In this document: in pieces, positions 19,283 through 59,789 of the stretch
Position numbering within the stretch: the first letter of the stretch is position 1
Layout of the letters: the number at the start of each line of letters is the position of its first letter
IMG/VR virus record: IMGVR_UViG_3300043429_000131
From: a virus
DNA length: 64,000 bases
Strand: one strand, 5' to 3'
Made by a program: the position numbers and the translations under genes
The notes under the pieces: model-generated
The model's database searches: none
The model's input: the letters and a program-made list of their open reading frames with translations, nothing else
Told to the model about the DNA's origin: nothing

Positions 19283-19912
19283 TTAGATGCCGGTGGCGTT
19301 GTCGTACGAGTGGTAGCCGAAGTTGAACTTAACGATCACTTCAACAAAACCAGTCGAGGTTGCGGTGTCAGGCACCATATCTACTACACGCATTGGCAGT
19401 GAAGTCGTTACGCCGTTAGCGTAAATGCCGATGCGGGAGTCACCAGTTGTGGTCGAACCAGTGTTCAACACCAGAGCCACGTTGTTACCCAGAGTGGACT
19501 GTGTCAAAGGCACAGGAACCAAACCAGTAGTGTTAGCAGTATCGCCAACCGACACGACCTTGTAGAGCTGGTCAGGATCGTCTGCGATATAAGCCTTAGC
19601 ATCGGTCACGCCAGAAGCGAAGCCGGGCCAGTACTGGGAGAAAGTCAGTTGCTTAGTTACAGGGTTAGTGTAAGTGCATCCGAGGAATACACCGACAACA
19701 CCAGCAACAGGGGAAGTATCAGTGTCCAGAGTTGCAACGGCCACCACACCATCAGCCGTCAGAGCAACCACGTCACCGTTAAAAATAGCGGTGTTGTAGT
19801 TGACCGAAGCGGTCGTGATAGGGAGTTGGCGTGTTGCACCTGCGAACACCTGACCACCGATCAGATTGATCGGCTTCAAGCCATAGGGCTTGTCAATCGT
19901 AGGATAAGCCAT
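19283..19912 (-). CDS. capsid-associated (decoration/stabilisation) protein
   Basis: PYGLKPINLIGG...AIFNGDVV...GVFLGCTYT..DDPD; directly upstream of the capsid gene. Confidence 0.55.
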   Translation of the reverse strand: MAYPTIDKPYGLKPINLIGGQVFAGATRQLPITTASVNYNTAIFNGDVVALTADGVVAVATLDTDTSPVAGVVGVFLGCTYTNPVTKQLTFSQYWPGFASGVTDAKAYIADDPDQLYKVVSVGDTANTTGLVPVPLTQSTLGNNVALVLNTGSTTTGDSRIGIYANGVTTSLPMRVVDMVPDTATSTGFVEVIVKFNFGYHSYDNATGI

Positions 19913-29512: not shown

Positions 29513-29710
29513 ATGTTAGAGAAGGAGCGCATAGCAAAAACGAAACATTGGATACAACACATCATCCTGAGTAAAAAACTAGGCGTAGACATACAGATAC
29601 CCGACGAGGACTGGGACTGGATGGTGTGCAACTGGGGCAGCGAAAGTGGGAACCGCAGCCTGTACGGGCAGCTATGGGACGAAGTAGAAAAGGAGATGCA
29701 CAATGACTAA
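29513..29710 (+). CDS. hypothetical early protein
   Basis: GGAGG RBS, ATG inside palindrome. Confidence 0.65.
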   Translation: MLEKERIAKTKHWIQHIILSKKLGVDIQIPDEDWDWMVCNWGSESGNRSLYGQLWDEVEKEMHND

Positions 29711-37914: not shown

Positions 37915-38819
37915 CACGAGTATGTTTTGCTGATGTCGGGTTCCCGACTAACATTGTTATATCGAACAAGATAGACCAATGGCGCACCAAGGTATTTACG
38001 CTAGACGATGTGGTGTTTGGCAAAATGTCTTCGCAGGTAATACCAGTGGTGGCGAGGATGTTCCCGGCGTGGGAATTCATGGTGACCCACGTTCATACGG
38101 AAGGGTTTTACGAGAAGCGTTGGGTGTTTCCGACGAGAATAATAGTGTCTGAGAAAGGTGTCGAACGGGGCAAGATACAGATCGACAATCCATGGCGTTC
38201 ATACGGCGAGAGCTTAGTCTTTTTAAACCCACGTATTCATAACGCCATGCAACGGGGAAGGTATAAGATCACAACCAAACCCAAGGTAGCTATACAAATT
38301 GTGAAGCAATACTTCACTGACCCACCCATTACAGAAACTATAGCAGTGGTAAGCAAGCAGCTCAAGTCTACTGCGAATATGCAACGGACTACGTTCAAAG
38401 CATCGAGAGACTTAGAGTACCTACGGTTAACAGATTTAGTGCGGCCATACGTTGATGAACACTTAGTAGAGATTGCAAAGCAAGTGCACGAAGTAAACGC
38501 TAACTTCAATGTGCCAAAGTACTTGGAGCTTGTTGAGGACACAAAAATATCTGAGTCTGTTGCTGATGTCCCGGCCAATTCTGCATTGACAGTCATGATA
38601 CGTAATGATAAATATGTGTTACATAGAAGTAATATGCCAGTCTTTGCGCTGACCTCAGAGCACTTACCGGAACAGGTTCGTACGGCGATAGGGCTGCTCA
38701 AGCTGGTAGATGACGGCCAGTTTGTGCGGGATGTAGGGTACAGGCACAAGGCAGATCAATTTTTAGTTGTATACGCTGGGCCATTTAACGAGGAGCTAAC
38801 ATGCAAAACTTCAAGCTGA
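37911..38819 (+). CDS. hypothetical protein
   Basis: 302 aa ORF, AAGGAG RBS. Confidence 0.7.
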   Translation: MTRVCFADVGFPTNIVISNKIDQWRTKVFTLDDVVFGKMSSQVIPVVARMFPAWEFMVTHVHTEGFYEKRWVFPTRIIVSEKGVERGKIQIDNPWRSYGESLVFLNPRIHNAMQRGRYKITTKPKVAIQIVKQYFTDPPITETIAVVSKQLKSTANMQRTTFKASRDLEYLRLTDLVRPYVDEHLVEIAKQVHEVNANFNVPKYLELVEDTKISESVADVPANSALTVMIRNDKYVLHRSNMPVFALTSEHLPEQVRTAIGLLKLVDDGQFVRDVGYRHKADQFLVVYAGPFNEELTCKTSS

Positions 38820-42172: not shown

Positions 42173-42378
42173 ACGAACAGAAAGTAAGACGGGGGCGTGG
42201 GCCCGGCAAAAAGCCACGACACGGCATCACGAGCGTGCGCCTACCAGTGTACGTTCTTGATTATTACCGCCGGAACTTTGACAACAGCACAGCTAAGATG
42301 CGCGAGGTTCTGGTTAACTATGCAGAAGAAAATGGAGCTAACAATGGTAAAGAAAGTAAAGAAGGTATTGAGCCCTGA
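42169..42378 (+). CDS. BrnA-antitoxin-like/RHH DNA-binding protein
   Basis: RGRGPGKKP....TSVRLP..VLDYYR. Confidence 0.5.
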   Translation: MNEQKVRRGRGPGKKPRHGITSVRLPVYVLDYYRRNFDNSTAKMREVLVNYAEENGANNGKESKEGIEP

Positions 42379-42811: not shown

Positions 42812-43108
42812 ATGGCTGGTACGCCTGAGAGTAAGGTTAAGTTAGCTGTCGTTAAATTGCTTAAGCAATACGGCGTTTATTTCTTTTTCCCCGCAACTCA
42901 CGGGTACGGACGCTCAGGCGTGCCAGACATCGTATGCTGTATCAACGGTAGGTTTTTAGCTATTGAATGTAAAGCTGGAAAGAACGAGCCCACTGCACTG
43001 CAACAACGAGAAATAAACCAGATACAAGCAGCGGGTGGTATGGCAATGGTGGTCAGAGAAGACCTAACATTGTTAGAATTTTTATTGAAGGAGCTAACGT
43101 ATGAGTGA
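42812..43108 (+). CDS. VRR-NUC (Holliday junction resolvase-like) nuclease
   Basis: TPESKVK...GRSGVPDIV...RFLAIECKAG...T.LQ....I..AGG. Confidence 0.88.
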   Translation: MAGTPESKVKLAVVKLLKQYGVYFFFPATHGYGRSGVPDIVCCINGRFLAIECKAGKNEPTALQQREINQIQAAGGMAMVVREDLTLLEFLLKELTYE

Positions 43109-43601: not shown

Positions 43602-45424
43602 AAATAATCGCGTTGGATTTTGAGACGTACTACGATAGAGAGTACAGCCTCAGCAAAATAACGACTGAGGAGTACATACGCGATCCACGATTTGAAACTA
43701 TAGGAGTGGGGGTAAAAGAAGATGGACAACCTGCAGTGTGGGTATCAGGTACACACGACAAAATCAAGGCGTTTCTTGAATCGCTCGACCTACATGAGCA
43801 TCTGGTACTCGCTCATAACGCTATGTTTGATGCCGCTATTCTTAACTGGCGTTTTGGTATCCGCCCTCGGGGTTGGCTTGATACGCTTAGCATGGCCCGT
43901 GCTCTACATACCATTGAAGTGGGGGGATCACTGGCTGCACTCGCTGCGTATTACAAGCTGGGTGCGAAAGGTACGGAAGTCATCAACGCTCTTGGTAAAA
44001 GGCGAACGGACTTCACGGCGCAAGAGTTAGCTGCGTATGGCGAGTACTGCAAGAACGACTGTGCACTGACCCTTGACCTGTTCAAGATACTGTCGCAGAA
44101 CTTCGCCAAGGAAGAGTTGAAGCTTGTCGACTTGACCATCCGCATGTTCTCGGAGCCAGTGCTGGAGTTGAGCCCTACTATATTGCACGGGCACTTGGAT
44201 GAGGTGCAGGTAAATAAGAAAAAACTATTAGAGGCTGTGACCATGGTGGACAAAGGCCAGCTCATGTCGAACGACAAGTTAGCGGCAACGCTAAAGCTGT
44301 TGAGGGTGCAGCCACCTACGAAGATAAGCCCAACGACGGGTAAGGAGACCTACGCTTTTGCAAAGAGTGACGAAACATTCAAGCTATTGCTAGAACACCC
44401 TGACGTTCGAGTGCAAGCTATTGTGGCTGCTAGGTTAGGTGTTAAGTCTACGCTGGAGGAGACACGCACTCAACGTTTCATCGAGATTGCTGCGCGGGGC
44501 ACTTTGCCTATCCCTCTGCGCTACTACGCTGCACACACCGGGCGTTGGGGTGGGGACGACAAAGTCAATATGCAGAACCTCCCCCGAAGCTCTCCGCTCA
44601 AACAAGCCATCTTAGCCCCGCCGGGTTACATGATGATTGACGCTGACTCTTCGCAGATTGAAGCGCGAACGCTGGCGTGGCTGGCGGAGCAGAACGATTT
44701 GGTGGAAGCATTCGACCGGGGTGAAGACGTGTATTGCATTATGGCATCTGCCATCTACGGGCGACACATTACCAAGGCTGACAAAAACGAACGATTTGTC
44801 GGAAAGACAACTATTCTGGGTTGTGGCTACGGGATGGGCGCGGCTAAGTTTCAGGCCCAGCTAAAGAACTTCAACGTGGTGTTAGAGCTTGAAGAGTGCC
44901 AGCGCATCATCAACGTGTACCGCGAGACCTACCCCATGATTCCGGCATTCTGGAAAAAGGCTGGCGATGCTCTTGGAACTATCATGTCTAATCAGGCGGG
45001 GGAGCTGGGTAGGGATGGCATCTTAAAAATTGACGGGTTGCAAGGCATTCTTTTGCCAAACGGCATGCGCGTTAAGTACCCCAACCTGCGCAAGGTCATA
45101 AATGATGACGGCAAGACGGAGATGGTGTACGATACAAAGAGGGGGAAAGCAACCATACCGAATAGGATATACGGCGGCAAGGTGACAGAGAACGTTTGCC
45201 AAGCCCTAGCCCGCATCGCAATCGGTAAGCAAATGCTGATGATTGCCAAGAAATACAAGGTTGTAATGACGGTGCACGATGCTGTTGCTTGTATCGTGCC
45301 GGAGAGTGAAGTTGAGACAGCACGGGAATTCGTTGAGATTTGTATGCGTATACGCCCCGAGTGGGCACCTGAGCTGCCTCTTAATTGCGAATCAGGGTAT
45401 GGAAGGAGCTACGGAGAATGTTAG
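43598..45424 (+). CDS. polA: family A DNA polymerase (3'-5' exonuclease + polymerase; no 5'-3' exonuclease)
   Basis: ExoI DFET, HNAMFD; motif A DADSSQIEAR, motif B RFVGKTTILGCGYG, motif C TVHDA. Confidence 0.95.
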   Translation: MKIIALDFETYYDREYSLSKITTEEYIRDPRFETIGVGVKEDGQPAVWVSGTHDKIKAFLESLDLHEHLVLAHNAMFDAAILNWRFGIRPRGWLDTLSMARALHTIEVGGSLAALAAYYKLGAKGTEVINALGKRRTDFTAQELAAYGEYCKNDCALTLDLFKILSQNFAKEELKLVDLTIRMFSEPVLELSPTILHGHLDEVQVNKKKLLEAVTMVDKGQLMSNDKLAATLKLLRVQPPTKISPTTGKETYAFAKSDETFKLLLEHPDVRVQAIVAARLGVKSTLEETRTQRFIEIAARGTLPIPLRYYAAHTGRWGGDDKVNMQNLPRSSPLKQAILAPPGYMMIDADSSQIEARTLAWLAEQNDLVEAFDRGEDVYCIMASAIYGRHITKADKNERFVGKTTILGCGYGMGAAKFQAQLKNFNVVLELEECQRIINVYRETYPMIPAFWKKAGDALGTIMSNQAGELGRDGILKIDGLQGILLPNGMRVKYPNLRKVINDDGKTEMVYDTKRGKATIPNRIYGGKVTENVCQALARIAIGKQMLMIAKKYKVVMTVHDAVACIVPESEVETAREFVEICMRIRPEWAPELPLNCESGYGRSYGEC

Positions 45425-47528: not shown

Positions 47529-49075
47529 ATAACAAAGTCATCGTCATACGTACGAGACGCCCGCACTTGATAACGGAGACGATCAAAAAGAGCAAGGTCA
47601 TCGGTAGACTGCCGGATGATCTGCATGATGTCGCCGTGCATTACGGGTTACCTGAAACCCAAGCACTAGCTAAGCTGAACATAAAGAATGTGCCGTCACC
47701 CATAATCCGAGACTACGACTGGCCGGGCCAGTTCAAACCATTCGAGCACCAAAAGCAAACCGCAGCGTTCCTCACCCTGCGCAAACGTGCGTTCTGTTTT
47801 AACGAACAGGGTACAGGCAAGACGGCTGCTGTTATCTGGGCGGCGGACTATCTGATGAAGCTGGGTCTGGTGCGCCGTGTGCTTATCATTTGCCCGTTGT
47901 CTATTATGAAATCGGCATGGCAGAACGACCTGTTCCGGTTTGCTGTGCACCGTAGCTGCGACATTGCGTATGGCAAGCGCGACCAGCGTAAGTCAGTAAT
48001 CAACGGCGAGGCAGAGTTTGTCATTATTAATTTTGACGGGCTGGATATTGTTAAGGACGAAGTTATGAACGGCGGGTTTGACCTGATCGTCGTAGACGAA
48101 GCCTCGGCATATAAGAACATGCAGACTGCACGCTGGAAAACATTGAAGTCAGTGCTCACTCCGGATACTTGGCTGTGGATGCTGACCGGCACTCCGGCGG
48201 CACAATCCCCTGTGGACGCTTACGGCATAGCAAAGCTGGTCAATCCCGATGGGGTGCCCAAGTTCTTTGGTCAGTTCCGCGACAAGGTGATGGAAAAGGT
48301 AGGCCAGTTCCGTTGGATACCAAGGCCCAACGCGGAAGTCACCGTGCATAACGCATTACAACCGGCAATAAGGTTTGAAAAAGCGCAATGTCTGGACCTG
48401 CCGGAGGTAACCTATACAGAACGGGATGCCCCGCTGAGCCCTCAGCAGAGGTTGTACTACAAGATTCTGAAGGAGCAAATGCTGATCAACGCCGGGGGTG
48501 AGGAAGTTACGTCTGTCAACGCAGCGGTAAACCTGAACAAGCTTCTGCAAATCTCGGGCGGTGCGGTCTACTCTGACACTAAGGAGATCATTGAGTTTGA
48601 TGTGTCCAACCGGCTGAAGGTAGTGCAAGAAGTTATCGAGGAATCAAGCAACAAGGTGCTGGTGTTTGTGCCGTTCACACATACTATTGAGCTACTGATG
48701 AGCCACCTTACAGCTGTTGGTATTACGTGCGACATCATAAGCGGGCAGGTTACGGTCAACAAACGCAACGATGTAATACAAAGGTTTCAAAATAGTAAAG
48801 AGCCAAGAGTGTTAATTATTCAACCACAGGCAGCGTCCCATGGGTTGACATTGACGGCAGCAGATACGATTATTTGGTACGCGCCCGTAACGAGTGTAGA
48901 AACTTACCTACAGGCAAATGCACGGATCAATCGCCCCGGACAGAAGAACGCGATGACTATTGTGCATATCAAAGGCAGCGAGGTGGAGGCAAGGCTTTAT
49001 CGCATGCTGCGCAACAACATAGCTAACCACACAAAAATAATCGATTTATACAAACAAGAGCTTAAAGACGCTTGA
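47516..49075 (+). CDS. SNF2-family (SF2) helicase
   Basis: NEQGTGKT, VVDEAS, LTGTP, KLLQI, HGLTLT, QA.ARI.RPGQ. Confidence 0.93.
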   Translation: MQIVDNKVIVIRTRRPHLITETIKKSKVIGRLPDDLHDVAVHYGLPETQALAKLNIKNVPSPIIRDYDWPGQFKPFEHQKQTAAFLTLRKRAFCFNEQGTGKTAAVIWAADYLMKLGLVRRVLIICPLSIMKSAWQNDLFRFAVHRSCDIAYGKRDQRKSVINGEAEFVIINFDGLDIVKDEVMNGGFDLIVVDEASAYKNMQTARWKTLKSVLTPDTWLWMLTGTPAAQSPVDAYGIAKLVNPDGVPKFFGQFRDKVMEKVGQFRWIPRPNAEVTVHNALQPAIRFEKAQCLDLPEVTYTERDAPLSPQQRLYYKILKEQMLINAGGEEVTSVNAAVNLNKLLQISGGAVYSDTKEIIEFDVSNRLKVVQEVIEESSNKVLVFVPFTHTIELLMSHLTAVGITCDIISGQVTVNKRNDVIQRFQNSKEPRVLIIQPQAASHGLTLTAADTIIWYAPVTSVETYLQANARINRPGQKNAMTIVHIKGSEVEARLYRMLRNNIANHTKIIDLYKQELKDA

Positions 49076-49099
49076 CAATGTCAAAAGTTAGTGTATAGT
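49072..49099 (+). promoter_or_regulatory. promoter of SSB/replication operon; -35 embedded in palindrome TTGACAATGTCAA
   Basis: TTGACA-16bp-TATAGT with TG extension. Confidence 0.65.
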
Positions 49100-49279
49100 T
49101 CAGGTATCAGCGCGCGAGTGCTGGTGGTAGTGGCAGGTTGAATGTTGAAGTGACGACACCCAAGCTGCGTGTGGGGCTAATAACTGCAGCGGCGGGGGCT
49201 GAGCTAAAACCGTAGGATTTTTTCGTTTGCCTATAGGTCTTCCACTCAGTGACCCCGCAATTTTATTGAAGGAGCTACG

Positions 49280-49681
49280 ATGGATATATCGGATTACCCC
49301 GCAGATAAGTTGGCGGAGGTGTATATAAAAATACGAGATAAGCGGGACGAGCTGCAGCGTCAGTTTGACGCGGAATACAAAAGGCTTGAAGAACAACTAT
49401 CGCTCGTGGCAAGCGAAATGTTGGAGTTGTGCAAAGAGAACGGCGCTGATAGCATCAAGACCCCCGCCGGTACCATAATGCGCAGAGTAGATACAAGGTT
49501 TTGGACAAGTGATTGGGATTCGTTCTACGACTTTGTGCAGGAGCATAATGCGTTTGGTCTGTTTGAAAAACGTATTAGTCAAGGTAACATGAAGCAGTTC
49601 CTCGAAGAAAACCCGGATGTACTGCCGAAAGGTCTTATGTCCGATAGTAAGTATAAAATTACCGTAAGGAGAAGCAAATGA
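49280..49681 (+). CDS. conserved coiled-coil replication-module protein
   Basis: LAEVYIKIRD...SIKTPAGT...F...DWDSFYDFV.EH....LFEKRISQ.NM. Confidence 0.75.
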   Translation: MDISDYPADKLAEVYIKIRDKRDELQRQFDAEYKRLEEQLSLVASEMLELCKENGADSIKTPAGTIMRRVDTRFWTSDWDSFYDFVQEHNAFGLFEKRISQGNMKQFLEENPDVLPKGLMSDSKYKITVRRSK

Positions 49682-50598
49682 GCAATGAAGTTTCCATTTT
49701 TAAGTCTGGTGATGTAGCACTCTCAGCAAAGAAAACCCCATCGGCACTGACCCAGTCGCTGATGAAAAAGAAAGCCCTGAAGCGTATCGTTGCTAAGAAC
49801 GGTATTCTGCGCCGACTGGCTAACGGTGAGGAAGTAGGTAAGTTGAAAGCACCTTTGCGTGTGGTCATCGTCAACGCATCTACGGACATCTCCCGCACTT
49901 TCTACGCTAAGACCTATGACCCAAACGCAGAAGCTGCGCCGCCTGACTGCTGGTCACCAGATGGCCGCAAGCCGGATGCAAGTGTGAAGCAGCCACAAGG
50001 TAAAACCTGCGAGACCTGCCCTAAGAATATTGCGGGTTCAGGTCAGGGCAATACCAAGGCATGTCGTTACGGTCGTCGCATCGCTGTAGTCCTGCCAGAT
50101 GATCTGGATACTAACGTGGCTGGTGATGTATATCAGATGCAGTTGTCGGCTAAGTCTATCTTCGGTAAGGGTAGCGGCCATACTTTCCCGTTCAACGCGT
50201 ACATCGACTACATCTTTGCCAACGGCAGTGACCTTGAGTCTGTGGTTACAGAGATTAGCTTTAACGAAGACAACGACAACCAGACGGTGCTGTTTAAGGC
50301 TGTGGACTTCGTTGCTAAAGACCCGCAGCTGGAAGCTATTGTTGCCGAGGCAGCAGTGTCGGAGACTGCACAAAAAGCTGTCGTTATGTCTGTGTATCAA
50401 ACTGATACGGAAGGTAAGACAAGTAATGAGGAGTTTGAGCAATCGCCTGTACCAAAAGCCGAGAAAGCCAAGGCAGAAGCAGTCGAAGCGGAAGAGGTGG
50501 CAGAACCTACGAAGCGTGCTTCTAAACCAAAGGCCGAGGTTTCGGATACGCCTAAGAAATCTCTTGCGGATGTGGTCAGTGACTGGAGCGACGACTAA
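49678..50598 (+). CDS. probable single-stranded DNA-binding protein
   Basis: PDCWS.DG..PD...Q...C..CPKNI.GSG...KACR..RR.AV; acidic C-terminus ending DWSDD. Confidence 0.65.
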   Translation: MSNEVSIFKSGDVALSAKKTPSALTQSLMKKKALKRIVAKNGILRRLANGEEVGKLKAPLRVVIVNASTDISRTFYAKTYDPNAEAAPPDCWSPDGRKPDASVKQPQGKTCETCPKNIAGSGQGNTKACRYGRRIAVVLPDDLDTNVAGDVYQMQLSAKSIFGKGSGHTFPFNAYIDYIFANGSDLESVVTEISFNEDNDNQTVLFKAVDFVAKDPQLEAIVAEAAVSETAQKAVVMSVYQTDTEGKTSNEEFEQSPVPKAEKAKAEAVEAEEVAEPTKRASKPKAEVSDTPKKSLADVVSDWSDD

Positions 50599-50828
50599 TG
50601 AGCTACGGATATAGCCAACGACTTGTTGACCTGAACAAACGGGCTGACAAGAAGCTGCTTGGCGTTATCTTGGGCAAGGCATGTATCGAAGCTGAGTCTC
50701 CGGTACGTGCTGTTGCTGACCAACTGGGGGTGAGCCGTGCTACGGTTTACAACTGGTTCACTGGTCTTTGCGACCCGCATCCAAAACACCACGCAGCAAT
50801 CAACAAACTGCTTAAGCGTTTGAAGTAA
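50598..50828 (+). CDS. small HTH protein
   Basis: VRAVADQLGVSRATVYNWF.G. Confidence 0.8.
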   Translation: MSYGYSQRLVDLNKRADKKLLGVILGKACIEAESPVRAVADQLGVSRATVYNWFTGLCDPHPKHHAAINKLLKRLK

Positions 50829-50852
50829 AGAGTAGGGCACCTAGTGCTTTTT

Positions 50853-50876
50853 GGGGGGAGCGATCCCCCCTTTTTT
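50853..50876 (+). terminator. rho-independent terminator upstream of primase gene
   Basis: GGGGGGA-GCGA-TCCCCCC-TTTTTT. Confidence 0.8.
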
Positions 50877-50895: not shown

Positions 50896-53781
50896 ATGGC
50901 TAACTTCGACTTAATGAATGCTGTGCTGCCCGATGAGGGTTGGTATTGCATTTTGGGGATTAAGGACGACGTAGCGTGGCAGGAGCTTGTACAGACTAGA
51001 GAAGAGGCAGATGATTTTATCAAGCAGTATCTGGATGGTGGGCGCGATGTTTACTTTGGTTGCGCTAAGTTTGAAACCAACGCGAACCGTAAGCAGGATA
51101 ACGCTGCATACTTCCGTGCCCTCTGGATGGATATTGACTGCGGTGAAGATAAAGCAAAGCCAAACCCTAAAAAGAACAACCGGATTGAAGGCTACGTAGA
51201 TCAAGCCACCGGGCTACAAGCACTGAGAGAGTTCTGTTCCACGATAGGACTGCCCAAACCTACAGTCGTTAACTCAGGACGTGGCTGGCATCTGTACTGG
51301 CTGCTTACTGAAACCATAGACAAAGCACGCTGGCAACCATTAGCTAAGCGGCTATCCAAGCTTTGCAATATCCACGGGCTGATTGTGGACCCTTCCGTCT
51401 TCGAGGCGGCTCGGGTGCTGCGCGTACCGGGGACACTGAACTTTAAGGATAACCCACCTAAACCGGTTGAGGTGCTATCCGTTGCACCCGCCATAGAATA
51501 CGAAAAGCTCAAGGAAATTCTGGGTGTAAGTATTGAGGACGAGCAGTACATACCTAAGCGGAGAGGCCCCCCGTCAGCCCTGACCATGGCGCTGATGAAG
51601 AACCGTACGGCGTCGTTTAAGAAGATTATGCTGTTAGGTAACGATGGCTGCGCACAACTAACACACTGCTACCAGAACCAAGAGTCCATAGACTACAACT
51701 TGTGGCGCTCGGCCTTGTCGATTGCGGCGTTCTGTGAGGACTCGTACTCGGCAGTGCATAAAATGTCTATGAACCACCCGCACTATGATCCGGCGGAAGT
51801 GGATGAGAAAGCGCACAACCTACAGTCCACCGGAGCCCCACACCACTGCGAGACGTTTGAGCGGTGGAATCCGGGCGGCTGCAACGGCTGCAAACATAAA
51901 GGCTCATTTAAATCTCCTATTGCTTTGGGCCGGACTATAGCTATTTCCGAAGCAACAGAGGAAGGCTATTTGGTCGAGGCGGACGAAGAGGAAGCCGAAG
52001 ATGAAGGCAGCGTAGCGGTTGCGCCTACTTATATTCCGACATACCCGTTCCCATATATGCGCGGTGCAAACGGCGGGGTTTACCGGGAGGCGATGAAGGA
52101 TGAGGAAGAACCCAAGCTAATTTACGAGCACGACATTTATGTAGTGCAGCGCATGATCGATCCGGAGGTTGGGGAAATTATGCGGATACGGCTGCATCTA
52201 CCCAAGGACGGTGTTAAGGATTTTGTAGTGGCAGCAAGTGCCCTGACGGGTAAGGATGAGCCAAAGAAACTATTGGGTGCTCAGGGCGTACTCGCTCGGG
52301 GTGTGCAGATGGATGAGGTAATTAACTTTTTGCTTAGGTGTGCAAAGGAAATACAGGTAACCACAAAGGCAGACATTATGAGAACACAATTTGGTTGGGC
52401 TGACGGAGACAGCAAATTTATTTTGGGTGACAGGGAGATCACGGCTGACAGCATTTACTACAGCCCCCCTTCGACAGCAACGAAGCATCTGGCACCGTAC
52501 GTCATAGAGTCAGGCACCCTAGAAAAATGGAAAGAAGTATTCAACCTGTACACCCGCCCCGGTCTGGAGCCGAACGCGTTTGCTGCGCTGTCAGCCTTTG
52601 GTGCGCCACTCCTTAAGTTCACCGGACAAAAAGGCGCGATCATTAACTTGGTCTTCCGTGGTTCTGGCTCTGGTAAGTCAACAACCCTCGCTGCATGCAA
52701 TAGCGTATGGGGGCATCCAGACCACCTGATGTGTATTCCGAAGGATACGATTAATGCCAAGATGCTAAAGCTTGGGGTGATGAATAACTTGCCGTTCACG
52801 ATGGACGAGATCACCAACATGATCGCTGAGGAGTTCTCTGATATGTCCTACGGTATGTCTCAGGGCCGCTGGAAAGACCGGTCCAAGGCATCCACCAACG
52901 AACTCCGACTTAACACGACATTCTGGCAGACCATATCTTTGTGCTCAGCCAACGCACACTTTGCGCAAAAGCTGGCGGCACTGAAGGCTACGCCGGACGG
53001 CGAGATGATGCGCTTGATGGAGTACCAGATTGGCTACTCAGATGCTATTAGCGTGGCAGAAGGTAAGCAGTACTTTGACCACCAGTTGCGGGAGAACTAC
53101 GGCGTGGCTGGCGGGATTTACGCACAGTGGCTTGTGGGCAATAAGGAAGAAGCAGTCCAGACCATGCGGGCCATACAAGCCAAGATTGACAAAGAGTTAA
53201 AACTCACCCAGCGAGAGCGGTTCTGGTCTGCTGTTGTTGCATGTAACATCACCGGTGGTTTGATCGCACGTAATCTGGGTCTGATCGACTACGACATGAA
53301 GGCTATTTACAAGTGGGCAACAGACCTGATTAAAGAACTGCGCAAGGAAGGCAGCGCCCCAATGGATGACGGTTCGACCGTACTGGGTGACTTCCTCAAC
53401 CGCCACGTGGACCAGTGCTTAGTTGTCAACGGAGAAGCTGATGCTCGCACTAACCTGAGCCCTGCACCTTTGCGGGAACCCCGAGGTGCGTTGGTTGCGC
53501 GGTATGAGCCCGATACCAAAAAGTTATTTATTCAGTCCAGTGCATTTAAGGATGACTGCGTCAAACGGCAGATTGGCTATAGCGACGTGCTACGGGAGCT
53601 GAAGATTAAAGGGGTGTTCAAGGGGCGGGTCACGCGCCGTCTTGGTACCGGGATGAAGATGGTGACGGCACCTGTGTATGTATTGGAGTTTGACTGCACC
53701 AACCCTGAGTACCTGAACGTCGAAGACTTTGTCCCAGTGGAGAAACCTGATGCGGGTGGAGAAAGTCAGCTACCAGATTAA
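50896..53781 (+). CDS. AEP/RepB-type primase fused to DUF927 superfamily-3-like helicase
   Basis: LWMDIDC, NSGRGWHLYW, ARVLRVPGT.N; Cys cluster C.TF...C.GC; Walker A GSGSGKST, MDEITN. Confidence 0.88.
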   Translation: MANFDLMNAVLPDEGWYCILGIKDDVAWQELVQTREEADDFIKQYLDGGRDVYFGCAKFETNANRKQDNAAYFRALWMDIDCGEDKAKPNPKKNNRIEGYVDQATGLQALREFCSTIGLPKPTVVNSGRGWHLYWLLTETIDKARWQPLAKRLSKLCNIHGLIVDPSVFEAARVLRVPGTLNFKDNPPKPVEVLSVAPAIEYEKLKEILGVSIEDEQYIPKRRGPPSALTMALMKNRTASFKKIMLLGNDGCAQLTHCYQNQESIDYNLWRSALSIAAFCEDSYSAVHKMSMNHPHYDPAEVDEKAHNLQSTGAPHHCETFERWNPGGCNGCKHKGSFKSPIALGRTIAISEATEEGYLVEADEEEAEDEGSVAVAPTYIPTYPFPYMRGANGGVYREAMKDEEEPKLIYEHDIYVVQRMIDPEVGEIMRIRLHLPKDGVKDFVVAASALTGKDEPKKLLGAQGVLARGVQMDEVINFLLRCAKEIQVTTKADIMRTQFGWADGDSKFILGDREITADSIYYSPPSTATKHLAPYVIESGTLEKWKEVFNLYTRPGLEPNAFAALSAFGAPLLKFTGQKGAIINLVFRGSGSGKSTTLAACNSVWGHPDHLMCIPKDTINAKMLKLGVMNNLPFTMDEITNMIAEEFSDMSYGMSQGRWKDRSKASTNELRLNTTFWQTISLCSANAHFAQKLAALKATPDGEMMRLMEYQIGYSDAISVAEGKQYFDHQLRENYGVAGGIYAQWLVGNKEEAVQTMRAIQAKIDKELKLTQRERFWSAVVACNITGGLIARNLGLIDYDMKAIYKWATDLIKELRKEGSAPMDDGSTVLGDFLNRHVDQCLVVNGEADARTNLSPAPLREPRGALVARYEPDTKKLFIQSSAFKDDCVKRQIGYSDVLRELKIKGVFKGRVTRRLGTGMKMVTAPVYVLEFDCTNPEYLNVEDFVPVEKPDAGGESQLPD

Positions 53782-53944
53782 TTGGCAAGCGTTTAAGCCG
53801 GGGGCTTCGTTTTTCATCCCGTGTCTGGACCCGGCTAAAGCAATCCAAGACATTACACGTGTTACGAAAAGACTCAGGTTTAAAACCGTAACACGCGTTG
53901 TTATACAGGAGGGCGTACAGGGGGTGCGAGTGTGGAGGGTCTAG
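53750..53944 (+). CDS. small hypothetical protein
   Basis: INWQAFKPGASFFIPC...GVQGVRVWRV; GGAG RBS. Confidence 0.65.
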   Translation: MRVEKVSYQINWQAFKPGASFFIPCLDPAKAIQDITRVTKRLRFKTVTRVVIQEGVQGVRVWRV

Positions 53945-53958
53945 GTTATACTGCGCCG

Positions 53959-54029
53959 GACGGCACCCTCCGAAGTTAGCTCCTTCTGCCGTCGCTCTCC
54001 TTTTCGCCCCCGCTTAGCCGGGGGCTTTT
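53959..54029 (+). ncRNA. candidate small RNA with anti-Shine-Dalgarno segments
   Basis: -10 TATACT at 53947; hairpin GACGGCA/TGCCGTC enclosing GAAGTTAGCTCCTTC; CTCTCCTT linker; terminator hairpin. Confidence 0.5.
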
Positions 54030-54030
54030 T
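54006..54030 (+). terminator. terminator between convergent arms
   Basis: GCCCCCG-CTTAGC-CGGGGGC-TTTTT. Confidence 0.85.
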
Positions 54031-57000
54031 TATTCCTTGTACGGACTACGCGGGAGTAGGCGCTCTAATGCAGGACGGAGTTTCTCAGATACCCGGATAC
54101 CACGTACAGACATTGCACTTGCTTCAACTTCCCCTTCAACGGCTTTGATGATGGTATCAGCATCCAGCCCAACCATCGGGTTCATACGGTTGAACTCTTT
54201 AAGCGCACGGAATGCCTCGTCTCGACGTGACGGAGTAAACTTCTTGTTGAGGTCTTTAAACAAAGTCAGCACGCGAGTACGATCCGCTTGGATTTTATCC
54301 AGCTCTGCCCTAGCTTGTGCTGCGTCTTCTTGCGTTGCTGCAACCTTAGTGGGGGAGAAGCCCGTAGCAGCGATAGCAATTTCTTTATCGCTTAGCTTGT
54401 CACGAGGAATAATCTTGTCGTCCTTAAGGTTACGCACCCCTTCCTCGTTCAACCTCATAGCCGCTGCAAATCCACGAAGGCCAGCAGGTAGCAACATCTC
54501 TACACCACGCTGAACGTCACCGTCATTTATACGGCGCAGTGCTTCAGATGCGTTTACAGCCAACCCGACGCTGGGGCCCATCATGTTGATCATGAACTCC
54601 TTCAACGCTTCAGGCTCAGACTTACCTGCCTTTAGCTCACGGAACCACAACTGATCCAGCTTCACACGGCTATGGAAGTCGATGTCTGTTGCCCACGAGA
54701 TAGGCCCACGTTCGATAGCTAAGCCTAAGTCTTCGCCAAACTCGTCGCGCAAGAACTTACGGAACCGCAGTTTAGGGTTGCGCTTCTCCGGGTCTTTCTC
54801 ATCTTCACTTGCTAATGACATAGCCCATGTAAGGACTGACACTAACGGCAGACCCAACGCACCCGCAAACATGGCTGTCATACCCAAGGTGCCAATAAAC
54901 TTAGTCGCAGCGGCGCTCCGAACTCCGGGTGGCTGCTTACCAAACATGGCTTTAAAGTTCTTAACCAGATAGAACGTGGTCTGCTGAGCAAACGATTTGA
55001 ACTGCAATATGACGCGGGCTACGTTGCCACGGAAGAATCGGGGCTTATTAAACTCAGAGTAATCAAACATCGCCTCATCAGTTAACCGAGCGGCTTCGTT
55101 CAATCCTTCTTCCATTGCAGTCTTAGCGTCACGCCCAGCCTTAGTAGCACGCTCGTAGGCCAAGTCGTAGGCTGTCATGAACATCACTTCGCGGTTAATC
55201 TTTTCGCTGTGATGGAACAGATAACCCACTGCATTCATTATGCTTACAGTAGACCCACTATATTTTTCCGACGGTGTCCGTGCAAGCTGAAGTGTGTCGT
55301 AGGTCAGCGTCGTATCAATCTTACCCCGGCGCAGGGCTTCCATGTACGCATCACGGCGGTGCCCAGCCAACTTAGAGAGCAACGTAGGAAAGGTAAACTT
55401 GCCGTCTTTATCGGTTGTACCAACTGCCTTGAAGATGTTCATGTTCTTGGCAAGTGCCAAGTTAGCTCGTGGGCCAAACTCACCGTTAAGCACAGGCATG
55501 CCGAACACAAACAGACCCGACAAGTTAGTAATTGCCGAGGCCGGAGCACTCATGTAATACAAGAAGCTGGCGCTGCCAAGGAAGTTAGCAAACTTAGTTG
55601 CTGCTGCATCTGACCGGTCTGGAGACAACACATTCTCCACACGATCTTTCATCTCATCAACCAGCGGCCTAAACAGTATTTCCCGTTGGGGCTTGCCTTC
55701 CGTAGCGTCCCAAGCTCGTGTCACAGCACTGCGCAATTTCTGCCCGTACTCAATCTTTGCTAACTGCACCGAGGTATGGAAGCTGGACTTAGCAAAGTTA
55801 CGTAGTGCGTCCGAACGGAAACCCGCTGTGCCTTTACGGTGAATAAAGTGCTTACGGAAGTTCTGTTCAGGCAGCGTAGAAAAGTACAACTGGTGTATCT
55901 CGTCTTTGAGTGCTGGCTTGTCTACCATGTTGGCGTTATCCACCAACTCAAGAATATCTTTTAGCATCTTGGAAGACCGCATACCTTCGTCAACGGCTTG
56001 TTTAAAGTCGTCGCCCATCGCAAAGATATTACTCTCGTCTTCCTTCAGTGCTTCTACAGTAGTGCCAAGCTCCTTAGCCCGCTGACGCACGAAGAAGTTA
56101 CGCTCGCGTGGGTCCTCAAACATGTAGTACTCCATGTTCGGGCTTTTTGGGTTACCGATACGCACCCAGTATTTACCTTCACGCACTAACGGGAAGTACG
56201 GTTGTGGCAGCTTCTCAAAGTCTTTTTCTAGCTTGGCAATAATCTGCGCTTTGGTCGCGTCGTCTGCTTCCGTTTGCGCTATGCGATCCAACAGTATTTG
56301 TTTGTACTGATCAAACCGTGCTTTATAGAAGTCGCGGATGTCGTTGTACAGCTTCTTACCGTCCGCACCCAGCGCCTCATACATTTGCGTAAGCGTAGCC
56401 GACCGTGTGTCTATCGAAGGGTCAAGCTGGTTGATGGTAGAGAGGTGGATGAGCCGGTTCAAAGTGCGGTACTTACCCGGATTGGCGCGTTGCCATTCAT
56501 GCCAGACCTTAGCCATAGCAGCGGTGTCGTCCAGCATCTTGGACTTAGCGCCGTTCATATCTTCTGCGATGCGCAGCACCTCATCTAACAGCGGATTGCC
56601 ATCAGCGTCGGTCATCTGTTTTGCGGCGTTAAGTTCTGTCAGTTGGCGGGTAGTCAACGCCCCCAACAGAGGGCGGCGGAACTGAGACTCTGTGCCGTTG
56701 TATATGTCAGATACCACATCCTTAGCGTCATCCCAGCTACGCACCTTGATAATCTGACCGATAGTGGTAAGGGCTTCTTCAGGGCTTGCTAGTGGTTGCT
56801 TTAACTTTTTGTCAAAGTCTTCTACCTTCTTACCGTTGTTCTTTATTGCAGCCAGCGTATCAGGTGTAGTGGCTATGATGCTCGCATCACGTGGCAGGCG
56901 CTCACTTAGGAGTGCGTCGGTAGTTACAACTAAGTCTTGGAATGCGGACTGGGAGTTAGCGTCAAAGCCAAACAGCTTGCGGATTGCCTCGACAAAACGC

Positions 57001-59789
57001 GAGAACATAGACATCTTCATCCCCGGCACTTCCGTAGCCAAGAACTGCTGCATCATGTTGTCGGTTAAGCCATACGACACAAACTCACGCACGTCGGTAA
57101 ATGCACCCACTTTGTTCAGCGCGTCAAGGTAAGGCGTGGAGCGCCCCTCTGCTTTAGCAACACGATACACAAGCTCAGCCCGGTTCATCGTCTTTTGCAT
57201 CATCTGAGCAAATGCTTGCAAAGCGGGCGCAGTGTCTAGCTCACCACGTTCAGCCAGAGCCAGTGCGTAATCCAAACGCAGTGTAGTAGCAGCGTGCAAT
57301 GCCTCATGCAGAATCGTCGTGTTGTTTACGCCGTTGACATCACCAAAGCTCTCATCCCGCACATAGATAGTCTTGCGAGACTCAGAGTACACACCTTGGG
57401 TGGTGTCTTTAAACGCCTTACTTATTTCTGCGGGTAGCTTAGTATCTGGGCGGATTACGACAAACTGTACACCCTTGACCGCATTCAACAGACGTTGAGC
57501 CAGCAGCTTTTCAAACGGCTTGCCGGTGTTCATTATCCGGCGCAGTGCCTGCTGTGCAGTTGTGGCTGTCCCAAACTTAGGGTCTGCCGTGTCCGACATA
57601 TAAATGCTTGTGGACTTAAGAGGTGCCCTGCCCTGCTCCGCTTTATACGAAGCGTAAAGCTCTTTGTACTGCGCCTGCTCTTGTGGAGTGAACTGCGCTA
57701 CGGCTTCCCGCGCTATCCGACCAGCCTTAGTGTCGCGGCGTGTAGGGTCTACGCTGGCGATGTACAAGTACATCTTGTTGTTCCACAAGTCTTCCTTGCG
57801 GGCAGTCTCGGCTTCTTCGTACGCGGTCTGCGCTTCCTCGGCGCTAACTCCGCGCTTAGCGAACTGCTCGGGGGCCAACCCTAATGATAGTTTCTGGACA
57901 GCCTTAGCCCGGCCCTCGATGTCACGAGCGTCTTGAATTAAATCAGCAGCTTGCGCTTTGCGTTCTTCCGGCGTTTTTGCAATCTCAGACTTTTTGCGTC
58001 CACCACCCGGTGCACGTTTGCGTGCGGGGGTTTCGGCTTGCTCAGCTATGGCTGCGACGGTAGCGGCTGTTTCTTGCGGTCTTTCTTCTTTTGCTTCGAC
58101 GGTTTCAAGGGCTTCAGCGACACGTGGTTCCTCCGTGGGTGTAACGATTTCTTGGGCAGCAGGCTGGGTTACAGGCTCAGCAGCTTCAGGAACAGGCGCT
58201 GCTTCCACCGCTTCGGCTGGGGCAACTTGTACAACAGGCTGTACAGCTTCCGGAGTAACTCCAGCTGCTTCAACGGGGGCTGCTTCTCCCACCATTTCAG
58301 TAGGAGCAATAGGAGCCACAGCAGTAGGTTCAGCCACAGGAGCACGTTGTGCAACGACAAAGCCGCCATCTGGGGCCTCCGTAATTTCTAGCTGTTCTTT
58401 GTTCTCAAGCGTATCCAGCACAGCCTGTGCTTGCTCAAGCGTTGGTAGCGGTGGGGTTAGTGGAGTTGACTGTACTGCTGCTCCAGTAATAGGTTCTCCA
58501 ACAAGTTGCTCAGCAGTAGCCAGTCCAGATGCGAGAGGTGCTTCAACTCCTGCGGCAGCGGCGTCAACTCCTCCGACAGGCATACTAGTGCTAGGCTCAA
58601 CTGCTCCGTTGACAGCTGGTGAAGGTTCGACGACATCAGCAACTCCTTCCTCGGGTACAACAGGACCCATCTCTTGTTCAATCAGTGTTTGCAGGCGGTC
58701 CAGTTCTCTCTGCTCCTGCGTAGCCGCACGGCGTTCCGTAGCAACTTCAGTTACCCCAGTGGTTGCACCAAGACCAGCACCAGCAGCAGCTTCCAACGTA
58801 CCTTGCGCCACAACACCACGCATAGTAGGCACATCAAAGCCTTCTTCTTGGAGAGCAAGGTTCTTGGCCAGTTGTTCTTGTGCGCCTTGGAGGAACTCAG
58901 GACCGGCTTCTTTTGCGGCAGACTTCGCCGCTGTACCCAGATAACCTTTGACAGCTTGCTCGGCTACGTCTTCTGCAATATCTGCTGCACCTTTGCGGGC
59001 AAGCTTATTGGCGATCATGCGGGCAATAGCTGGTTGGGCACCAGTAATAGCTTCAAGCGTACCAAGGCCAGCGCCTGTGGTAATCATGCCCATGTTCTCG
59101 CCAAAGTACTCCTGTGCCTTTACAGCCCGCGCTTCGGCTTCAGCCGGTTTCAAACCAGCCTTAATAAGTTCTTCCGCAACAGTTTCGTAAATAGCACCCT
59201 TGATGGTACCCGCACCCATGACGGAACCCACTGCCGCCGTAGTACCGAGAACAGCAGCCGCAGGCGCACCTGCCAAAGTAGCTGTAAGCCCTGCAATAAT
59301 AGCTGGGCCGGATGTACCTAGCGCGTTGACAATGGTGTCTACTGGAGCAACAGACAAAGCCTTGACACCTGCTACCACTTGATCAGCTATGCCTTTGTCT
59401 TCGGCATCTTTCATGATCCGCGCCATCTCACGCGAGTCTTGTTTGGACTGCGCAGACATCAAACTTGCTAGGTGGTCTTCTACAGAGCGTAGATTCTTAG
59501 ATACAGAAGAGTTTGCGCCAAACGCATCAGAGATAAGCCGAACGCCGGTAACTGCACCTTTTTGAAGTTGCAATGGAATATCCGCAACCTGCCGGAATAC
59601 AGACTGGTCTTCAGGTGTCGGCTCGGCGGTCTTAGTGCGAGCGTCAATGAACTGAGTAGGCTGCGCTTCCTCAAAGGAAAACGACGTGGGTTTAACCGGA
59701 GCTACTGCTTCCTCGAAAGAGAAGGACTGCGGCTGCTGTGGTTGCGGATTGGGCCGCAGCGCATCTTCAAACGAAAAAGAGTTCGCCAT
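54030..59789 (-). CDS. large internal virion/ejection protein (polyvalent type, HExxH metallopeptidase-like domain)
   Basis: 1919 aa; TILHEALHA zincin motif with downstream EFVSYGL; C-terminal half resembles podovirus gp16/LPD-type ejection proteins. Confidence 0.75.
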   Translation of the reverse strand: MANSFSFEDALRPNPQPQQPQSFSFEEAVAPVKPTSFSFEEAQPTQFIDARTKTAEPTPEDQSVFRQVADIPLQLQKGAVTGVRLISDAFGANSSVSKNLRSVEDHLASLMSAQSKQDSREMARIMKDAEDKGIADQVVAGVKALSVAPVDTIVNALGTSGPAIIAGLTATLAGAPAAAVLGTTAAVGSVMGAGTIKGAIYETVAEELIKAGLKPAEAEARAVKAQEYFGENMGMITTGAGLGTLEAITGAQPAIARMIANKLARKGAADIAEDVAEQAVKGYLGTAAKSAAKEAGPEFLQGAQEQLAKNLALQEEGFDVPTMRGVVAQGTLEAAAGAGLGATTGVTEVATERRAATQEQRELDRLQTLIEQEMGPVVPEEGVADVVEPSPAVNGAVEPSTSMPVGGVDAAAAGVEAPLASGLATAEQLVGEPITGAAVQSTPLTPPLPTLEQAQAVLDTLENKEQLEITEAPDGGFVVAQRAPVAEPTAVAPIAPTEMVGEAAPVEAAGVTPEAVQPVVQVAPAEAVEAAPVPEAAEPVTQPAAQEIVTPTEEPRVAEALETVEAKEERPQETAATVAAIAEQAETPARKRAPGGGRKKSEIAKTPEERKAQAADLIQDARDIEGRAKAVQKLSLGLAPEQFAKRGVSAEEAQTAYEEAETARKEDLWNNKMYLYIASVDPTRRDTKAGRIAREAVAQFTPQEQAQYKELYASYKAEQGRAPLKSTSIYMSDTADPKFGTATTAQQALRRIMNTGKPFEKLLAQRLLNAVKGVQFVVIRPDTKLPAEISKAFKDTTQGVYSESRKTIYVRDESFGDVNGVNNTTILHEALHAATTLRLDYALALAERGELDTAPALQAFAQMMQKTMNRAELVYRVAKAEGRSTPYLDALNKVGAFTDVREFVSYGLTDNMMQQFLATEVPGMKMSMFSRFVEAIRKLFGFDANSQSAFQDLVVTTDALLSERLPRDASIIATTPDTLAAIKNNGKKVEDFDKKLKQPLASPEEALTTIGQIIKVRSWDDAKDVVSDIYNGTESQFRRPLLGALTTRQLTELNAAKQMTDADGNPLLDEVLRIAEDMNGAKSKMLDDTAAMAKVWHEWQRANPGKYRTLNRLIHLSTINQLDPSIDTRSATLTQMYEALGADGKKLYNDIRDFYKARFDQYKQILLDRIAQTEADDATKAQIIAKLEKDFEKLPQPYFPLVREGKYWVRIGNPKSPNMEYYMFEDPRERNFFVRQRAKELGTTVEALKEDESNIFAMGDDFKQAVDEGMRSSKMLKDILELVDNANMVDKPALKDEIHQLYFSTLPEQNFRKHFIHRKGTAGFRSDALRNFAKSSFHTSVQLAKIEYGQKLRSAVTRAWDATEGKPQREILFRPLVDEMKDRVENVLSPDRSDAAATKFANFLGSASFLYYMSAPASAITNLSGLFVFGMPVLNGEFGPRANLALAKNMNIFKAVGTTDKDGKFTFPTLLSKLAGHRRDAYMEALRRGKIDTTLTYDTLQLARTPSEKYSGSTVSIMNAVGYLFHHSEKINREVMFMTAYDLAYERATKAGRDAKTAMEEGLNEAARLTDEAMFDYSEFNKPRFFRGNVARVILQFKSFAQQTTFYLVKNFKAMFGKQPPGVRSAAATKFIGTLGMTAMFAGALGLPLVSVLTWAMSLASEDEKDPEKRNPKLRFRKFLRDEFGEDLGLAIERGPISWATDIDFHSRVKLDQLWFRELKAGKSEPEALKEFMINMMGPSVGLAVNASEALRRINDGDVQRGVEMLLPAGLRGFAAAMRLNEEGVRNLKDDKIIPRDKLSDKEIAIAATGFSPTKVAATQEDAAQARAELDKIQADRTRVLTLFKDLNKKFTPSRRDEAFRALKEFNRMNPMVGLDADTIIKAVEGEVEASAMSVRGIRVSEKLRPALERLLPRSPYKE

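Follow-up and report, generated by a model that had tools for sequence, protein, structure and literature searches.

The c4 RNA of phages P1 and P7 is of similar size to the unit analysed here, has exposed sequences that pair with the ribosome-binding region of icd, the first cistron of its target, and shows matched changes in RNA and target between P1 and P7; it is encoded ahead of its target within one operon and is released by processing. This antisense RNA of immI pairs with the mRNA of the ant operon and represses the operon (PMC12197685). The locus described here would resemble c4 in that a phage RNA is proposed to act on the first ribosome-binding site (RBS) of an operon with coupled cistrons, and RNA and target differ in step from phage to phage. 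Unlike the present RNA, c4 serves the immunity of temperate phages and is not known to carry a pair of 16S-like CUCCUU tracts, and the unit lies 4.7 kb downstream of its target, at the end of the next transcription unit. Enterobacterial small RNAs (sRNAs) derived from 3' untranslated regions (3' UTRs) arise from an internal promoter (DapZ type) or by processing (CpxQ/SroC type); as in the unit, their terminator is also that of the mRNA ahead of them, and a promoter may be embedded where its coding sequence ends, but these are host RNAs and bear no sequence relation to the unit. For alpha-proteobacteria, anti-Shine-Dalgarno (anti-SD) sRNAs with the CCUCCUCCC motif have been described (cuckoo/alpha-r14, NfeR1, and CcsR; PMC4615179, PMC3927594, PMC10746234). 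They too are short RNAs with repeated C/U-rich anti-SD motifs in loops and single strands, end in an intrinsic terminator and are aimed at translation starts, whereas they are chromosomal and stress-regulated, have a longer and different motif and gave no covariance-model match here. Neither by sequence nor by model does the unit belong to any of these three groups. RNA-seq of virulent phages has revealed abundant intergenic transcripts of ~100 nt with a proposed translational role (sRNA1/sRNA2 of PAK_P3 and band C/D of T4; PMC4933390). For these there are expression data and no supported target, whereas the present RNA has comparative support for its target and is known from DNA alone. The unit most likely represents a new family of phage regulatory RNAs of an already known kind.

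The window, i.e., the whole stretch of 64,000 nt that was analysed, represents part of a phage genome and consists of a structural arm (minus strand), an early/replication arm (plus strand, about 27-54 kb) and another minus-strand arm opening with a 1919-aa virion protein; the RNA unit lies at the junction where the last two converge. No integrase was seen in the window, and ARAGORN found no tRNA or tmRNA genes in it. The last plus-strand gene, p64, overlaps the end of a 961-aa primase-helicase gene and is conserved in all relatives (48 distinct orthologues found, 29 aligned), with an invariant C-terminal G-x-R-x-W-R and further invariant residues at W12, F15, S20, and P24-C25. Its AF2 model (pLDDT 90) has a beta-alpha-beta-beta topology, for which the fold search returned no PDB match with E<0.07 and hence no assignment, and searches against Pfam and PHROG gave no match. 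On the opposite strand, the stop codon of the 1919-aa gene (54030-54032) falls in the T tract of the unit's terminator and the base after it. The 1919-aa protein has PHROG matches to a virion RNA polymerase (residues 736-985) and to DarB-like/large virion proteins (C-terminal 800 residues), and is probably an ejected multi-domain protein. The phage sequence was located in freshwater and lake metagenomes, as DNA only. Among the matches listed, DNA contigs from four lake metagenomes showed only strain variants, plus indels at ~53965-53971 and 53996-54002 in a diverged relative; neither variants nor indels were counted as evidence.

The unit opens with a -10-like hexamer 2 nt past the TAG stop codon (53942-53944) of p64 (Table 1). 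All parts listed in the first-pass annotation, namely TATACT, a 7-bp hairpin, a second tract and a terminator between convergent arms, are present. The 7-bp stem of hairpin H1 encloses GAAGTTAGCTCCTTC (53972-53986), and its 21-nt loop contains a CCCUCC tract (53966-53971) plus seed 1, GTTAGCTCCTTC, which is the exact reverse complement of 43087-43098. The accompanying caveat, that part of seed 1 can itself fold, also holds in the window, where GAAG (53972-53975) can form a 4-bp mini-stem with CUUC (53983-53986). The second tract, CTCTCCTTTTC, is followed by the terminator stem (54006-54025) and T6. This terminator is functional in form on the plus strand only, as the hairpin, when read on the minus strand, has GAAAAGG behind it and no U tract; in all relatives it lies on the strand of the RNA and at its 3' end, as expected of a trans-acting sRNA. 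Sense AGGAG is absent from the plus strand of all 53 unique variants of the unit. A minus-strand small ORF behind AAGGAG words was discarded, its start codon being present in only some relatives.

Table 1. Coordinates of the RNA unit, its putative targets and the neighbouring genes (window positions, unless a contig is named)
Feature	Position	Strand	Details
-10-like hexamer TATACT	53947-53952	+	candidate promoter element of small RNA
5' hairpin H1	53959-53993	+	arms GACGGCA 53959-53965 with TGCCGTC 53987-53993; RNAfold
Seed 1, GUUAGCUCCUUC	53975-53986	+	complementary to several translation starts
Seed 2, single-stranded CUCUCCUUUUC tract	53995-54005	+	second CUCCUU tract, kept in class A
Intrinsic terminator	54006-54031	+	7 G-C pairs, 6-nt loop, T6; terminator scan
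Conserved target, SD region GAAGGAGCUA and ATG 49280 of p133	49268-49282	+	10-nt complement in window
Target transcription unit p133-p306-HTH	49072-50876	+	promoter/terminator scan, ORFs
Operon promoter TTGACA-16-TATAGT	49072-49099	+	scan 11/12
p133, first cistron	49280-49681	+	sub-threshold Mu Gam/Gp157-like matches (Pfam/PHROG)
p306	49678-50598	+	stops/starts overlap with neighbours
p76, 76-aa HTH protein	50598-50828	+	Pfam/PHROG
Operon terminator	50853-50870 and T6	+	7 pairs; between operon and primase gene
Candidate target, 166-aa gene upstream of DNA polymerase gene	43087-43103	+	12-nt complement
Candidate target, 115-aa gene, ATG 45418	45402-45420	+	10-nt complement before ATG
Candidate target, 62-aa gene, ATG 38801	38791-38803	+	10-nt complement abutting ATG
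Candidate target, DUF3310 protein (152 aa), ATG 42344	42334-42346	+	9-nt complement before ATG
p64, conserved 64-aa gene	53750-53944	+	ORF list; stop directly precedes unit
1919-aa virion-protein gene, convergent	54030-59789	-	PHROG matches
84-aa predicted lipoprotein gene	L016:4368-4622; L021:2567-2821; L011:1296-1550; L008, same place		between promoter and p133

Related primases are encoded by 367-425 IMG/VR contigs, of which 155 were examined. The unit was found at the same place in 73 of 73 site-covering contigs of a first set and in 69 of 75 of a second, most of the remainder of the latter being cut contigs, and the primase identity among unit-bearing relatives went down to 53%. There is one copy per contig (a 17-nt word of class B, for instance, occurs exactly once in each of 66 contigs), and all share one layout, in which 0-2 nt separate the p64 stop codon from a TA-n-A-n-T/A hexamer and a stretch of RNA-like sequence (30-65 nt) then leads to a G+C-rich terminator with T5-7. 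The 91% relatives have almost 100% identity within the unit, with no more than 2-3 changes close to the terminator, while the coding sequence alongside shows a difference every ~8-10 nt; their convergent gene is unrelated. Across the unique variants, CTCCT is universal (53/53) and CTCCTT nearly so (51/53), and by its architecture the unit can be divided into classes A, B and C. Class A, to which the window copy belongs, displays (U)UGUUAGCUCCUU in the loop of the 5' hairpin and has a second tract, AUUCUCCUUC, after it; class B has a 5' hairpin, a UCCUC linker and then a mini-hairpin, GGAAG-UUAGCUC-CUUCC; class C comprises assorted forms with one to three CUCCUU tracts. Cultured phages gave no nucleotide match by blastn; the best primase match among them, that of Pseudomonas phage Rollin, has ~30% identity, and the Rollin genome has neither a p64 gene nor such a unit at the junction. 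The Rfam search that had been suggested as a check matched no family: in the window and ten relatives, no model of Rfam 15 (C4 antisense RNA and mmgR/alpha-r8 included) reached its gathering score, the best sub-threshold rows having 13-18 bits against thresholds of 41-50 and the nearest row, mmgR, 13.2 bits against 41 (E 2.6).

The hexamer itself was found 0-2 nt past the stop codon in 53/53 unique variants (TATACT 33, TATAAA 7, TAAACT 5, and TACACT 4), and the 6-12 nt after it are unconserved. The sigma-70 scan called no promoter at the 53947 hexamer and found no -35 at a spacing of 16-18 nt; any -35 of the proposed small-RNA promoter would fall inside the 3' end of p64. The same type of hexamer forms the -10 of the target operon's consensus-like promoter in relatives. 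We put the chances of an independent transcript from its own promoter at about even. Further TATACT hexamers occur on the plus strand at 2517 and 17505, both between genes of the structural arm on the minus strand, the former immediately after the palindrome GCCTGTCACAGGC. The word AGTGACCCCGCA was considered as a repeated phage promoter word and dropped, as it occurs a single time.

In the minimum case, the RNA would be the 3' end of the primase-p64 transcript: polymerases that transcribe the replication module on the plus strand have to enter the unit and stop at its terminator, and therefore the seed RNA would be made, and could accumulate, whenever the module is expressed. It may also arise from its own -10-type promoter directly past the p64 stop codon, in which case separate initiation at the base of the hairpin, 6-7 nt past the hexamer, would yield an RNA of 73-75 nt. 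The unit could, on the other hand, be a mere 3' UTR end and terminator of the replication transcript, with a hairpin that guards against 3' exonucleases and tracts that have no partner; its position is exactly where a terminator between convergent arms is expected, and the terminator is strong. This would leave unexplained why CUCCU, looped or single-stranded, is invariant among architectures that have nothing else in common, why the -10-like hexamer is conserved, and why changes are mirrored at the p133 start as described below, and we regard it as quite improbable.

Structural conservation in relatives had been set as a test beforehand, and H1 was found to be retained with compensatory changes. 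RNAalifold on plain MAFFT alignments missed the hairpin because MAFFT misaligned it, and a covariance model built on six class A hairpins was used instead, with which 16 sequences were realigned. In these realigned class A sequences, 92.4% of the cells of H1 were paired vs. 65.8% in shuffled ones (0/500 shuffles reached the observed value), 8/9 pairs had changed on both sides, and controls with slid partners paired in 17-64% of cells. The window copy, which has a larger loop, was missed by the small covariance model and adopts the same fold by RNAfold. In class B, six different 5' stems stand at the same place. Read from these alignments, the covariation of H1 reflects a constraint that acts on the plus strand as RNA (or as a single strand), and we have little doubt that the unit is a functional plus-strand RNA element.

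As for its partners, the first-pass annotation had proposed a phage sRNA that pairs with RBS regions, and ranked the 12-nt exact reverse complement at 43087-43098 highest. This match, which ends 2 nt before ATG 43101, was confirmed. When the 74-nt unit is compared with the 64 kb, however, ~0.2-0.5 matches of one 12-mer are expected by chance (63 words × 64,000-128,000 positions / 4^12, a figure that Shine-Dalgarno enrichment raises further), so that the match has no significance by itself and the case rests on the relatives. Six start regions of the window are matched by 9-12 nt, five by seed 1 and one, 29687, by seed 2 (10 nt); the equivalent tract in G001 has a 12-nt match to another start. 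The shorter matches claimed earlier are real as well (10 nt at 49268, 10 nt at 38791, 9 nt at 42334, and 8 nt at the capsid RBS at 19284 on the minus strand). In terms of whole-region duplex energy, the window targets lie only in the 0.5-14% tail of the genomic background, and ranking by this measure within the window alone did not set them apart. The 43087 site is kept in the 91% relative, is reduced to 9 nt (G001) or 8 nt (G002) in two other genomes and is missing from G003; judged from these genomes, it is a lineage-specific candidate target. The relatives lend support to the proposed RBS-pairing sRNA, with 49268 and not the top-ranked 43087 as the conserved target. Upstream of the two best-matching starts, 43101 and 49280 (43063-43100 and 49259-49279), the sequences share an A/T-rich TTTTATT directly before GAAGGAGCTA, which suggests a common strong-start module.

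Palindrome-associated starts had also been counted as near matches of the seed. These similarities appear coincidental, and the link to CTAACAATGTTAG was not supported. A connection between a GUUAG seed and the 13-bp palindrome CTAACAWTGTTAG was rejected, since G003 and G004 have 17-20 palindromes and no GUUAG in the RNA, and G002 has GUUAG and no palindrome. Overall, three complete relatives contain 17-26 copies, two of them without GUUAG, and there are none in two relatives whose RNA has UUAG-type seeds. In the window, the palindrome (CTAAC-AAT/ATT-GTTAG) has 13 exact copies in both orientations between 27148 and 47385, i.e., in the early region only (e.g., 29015, 29507, 33021, and 35850 on the plus strand; 31680, 32436, 34203, 35446, and 43076 on the minus strand). 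Many copies lie away from plausible gene starts, so that the palindrome has the look of an operator or promoter element acting at the level of DNA, not of a translation signal.

The conserved target is the first start of the three-gene operon p133-p306-HTH, whose p133 orthologue lies 4.4-4.9 kb upstream of the unit in 70/71 loci. It had been labelled the SSB operon; no search that we ran identified p133 as SSB. In the window, the p133 leader is ~170 nt long. The -35 of the operon promoter lies inside a 5-3-5 palindrome, TTGACA-AT-GTCAA (49072-49084), which is conserved at the same place in L031, L042, L053, L036, L049, and L038 with a -10 of the TATACT/TATAAT type and may be an operator overlapping the promoter. 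Many lineages (L038, L045, L183, L189, L195, L207, and others) have a long conserved leader between promoter and start, ~130 nt upstream of the p133 start, with a long-range stem and an internal stem-loop; it differs from the leader in the window (49107-49279) and may be a cis-regulatory RNA. In this large long-leader subclade the small RNA has no more than a generic 5-6-nt SD complement at the p133 start, as is the case in G001, G004, L049, and L036.

Since the operon has its own consensus-like promoter and its own terminator, pairing would be in trans. Alternatively, pairing could be intramolecular, if read-through from the p133 promoter as far as the junction terminator gave a transcript whose 3' end folds back onto its 5' start region: both sites are on the plus strand of one arm, and the scan found no strong promoter belonging to the primase gene. 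Such a transcript would have to pass the good terminator (7 pairs and T6) that separates the operon from the primase gene, pairing in trans is more likely than a 4.7-kb loop, and the conserved -10-like hexamer suggests a separate start, all of which makes this explanation very unlikely.

Evidence for pairing with the p133 start comes from the seeds themselves, and the proposed test of whether seed changes are mirrored in a target RBS gave a positive answer at this first start. In most lineages, the complement between seed and p133 start amounts to 9-15 nt, and changes on one side are mirrored on the other. In classes A and B the seed UUAGCUCCUUC faces the start GAAGGAGCUAA, and seeds extended by CGUCG pair with ACGAAGGAGCUAA over 13 nt; elsewhere the pairs are CUCCUUUUA / UAAAAGGAG (L017-L020), CUAUCUCCUUG / CAAGGAGAUAG (L029), UUUCUCCUUGG / CCAAGGAGAAA (L033), UUUUCUCCUUG / CAAGGAGAAAA (L044), GUCGCUCCU / AGGAGCGAC (L053), UGUUAGCUCCA / UGGAGCUAACA (L218), and further UUUUUCCUUG / CAAGGAAAAA, and the seed UUUCUCCUUGGUUG of L163 has its own 14-nt complement. 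Even the SD core has changed in two cases, from GGAG to GGAA together with CUCC to UUCC in the seed (L181, 10 nt; L228, 15 nt), the 15-nt pair being centred on UUCCUU / AAGGAA. Four lineages have gained, by insertion in front of p133, a gene for a predicted 84-aa lipoprotein whose signal peptide ends in a cysteine lipobox; in these, the start of the inserted gene has an 11-13-nt match and the p133 start has lost its own. The match moves to the inserted first gene, and therefore the target is the first translation start of the operon, whichever gene provides it. Own pairs exceeded swapped pairs both in longest match (8.91 vs. 7.63 nt, 32 seed groups) and in duplex energy (-16.8 vs. -14.3 kcal/mol, 80 groups), with 0/20,000 permutations reaching the observed value in either test, figures that are inflated by shared ancestry and overstate independence. 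The independent mirrored events are the stronger argument.

A broader action would be that of a general anti-SD decoy which mimics the 3' end of 16S rRNA and damps mRNAs with a strong SD, of phage or host, without a dedicated target. CUCCU(U) is indeed the only universal sequence, many lineages have just a 5-6-nt complement at p133, and several unrelated starts match in each genome; a decoy, however, predicts neither the co-variation of flank and core with one particular start nor the transfer of the match to an inserted first gene. We consider a decoy unlikely as the explanation of the unit, and the two modes of action can coexist.

The two sites might also be recognised as double-stranded DNA by one phage protein, for example the HTH protein of the operon, with drift in its specificity producing the co-variation. 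A DNA site is the same on either strand, an HTH gene is part of the target operon and the -35 of the operon promoter is inside a palindrome, all of which would suit such a protein. The shared word, by contrast, is short, asymmetric and SD-centred, its similarity is confined to the 9-15-nt seed, and at the junction it sits in the loop of a hairpin with a covarying stem, an RNA-level signature, followed by a strand-specific terminator. Recognition at the DNA level is in our view exceedingly unlikely. As the similarity of both sites never extends beyond the seed, they are also not a duplicated segment.

The unit probably encodes a ~75-nt regulatory RNA that pairs with the first start of the p133 operon and occludes its RBS, and pairing at this start is, from the comparative evidence, the likely way in which the RNA acts. 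It would consist of a 5' stem-loop, one or two exposed CUCCUU-type tracts like the 3' end of 16S rRNA, a spacer, and the intrinsic terminator. Its seed would pair with the SD region and spacer of p133, in a separate transcription unit 4.7 kb upstream, and thereby exclude the 30S subunit from the first cistron. Translational coupling through the stop-to-start overlaps of the three cistrons should extend the effect to p306 and the HTH protein and so lower expression of the operon as a whole; both this repression by pairing and its timing are what we infer. In the window, the same seed also fits the early/middle starts at 43087, 45402, 38791, and 42334, and seed 2 that at 29687.

The diversified pairs of seed and start may further define specificity groups, in which the RNA of one lineage would silence the replication/recombination operon of a co-infecting relative with the same start. 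The mirrored changes, those of the SD core included, would then record an arms race among related freshwater phages and not mere self-regulation; by analogy with the heteroimmune c4/ant pairs of P1 and P7 this is conceivable, and we hold both parts of the idea to be rather doubtful.

Occlusion of an RBS by an antisense seed is textbook, and the advance lies in a new family and circuit, not in a new principle. To our knowledge, very few sRNAs of non-temperate phages have a supported target. Here, hundreds of environmental genomes hold the neighbouring primase gene, and both the seed and the conserved target of the family are defined, the latter being the start that opens a three-gene operon of the replication/recombination module with an HTH regulator among its products. 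The lineages provide natural sets of cognate and non-cognate seeds and starts that are directly testable in reporters. If confirmed, the family would supply a covariance model for the annotation of these phages, and would be an example of post-transcriptional timing control in an abundant group of uncultured freshwater phages.
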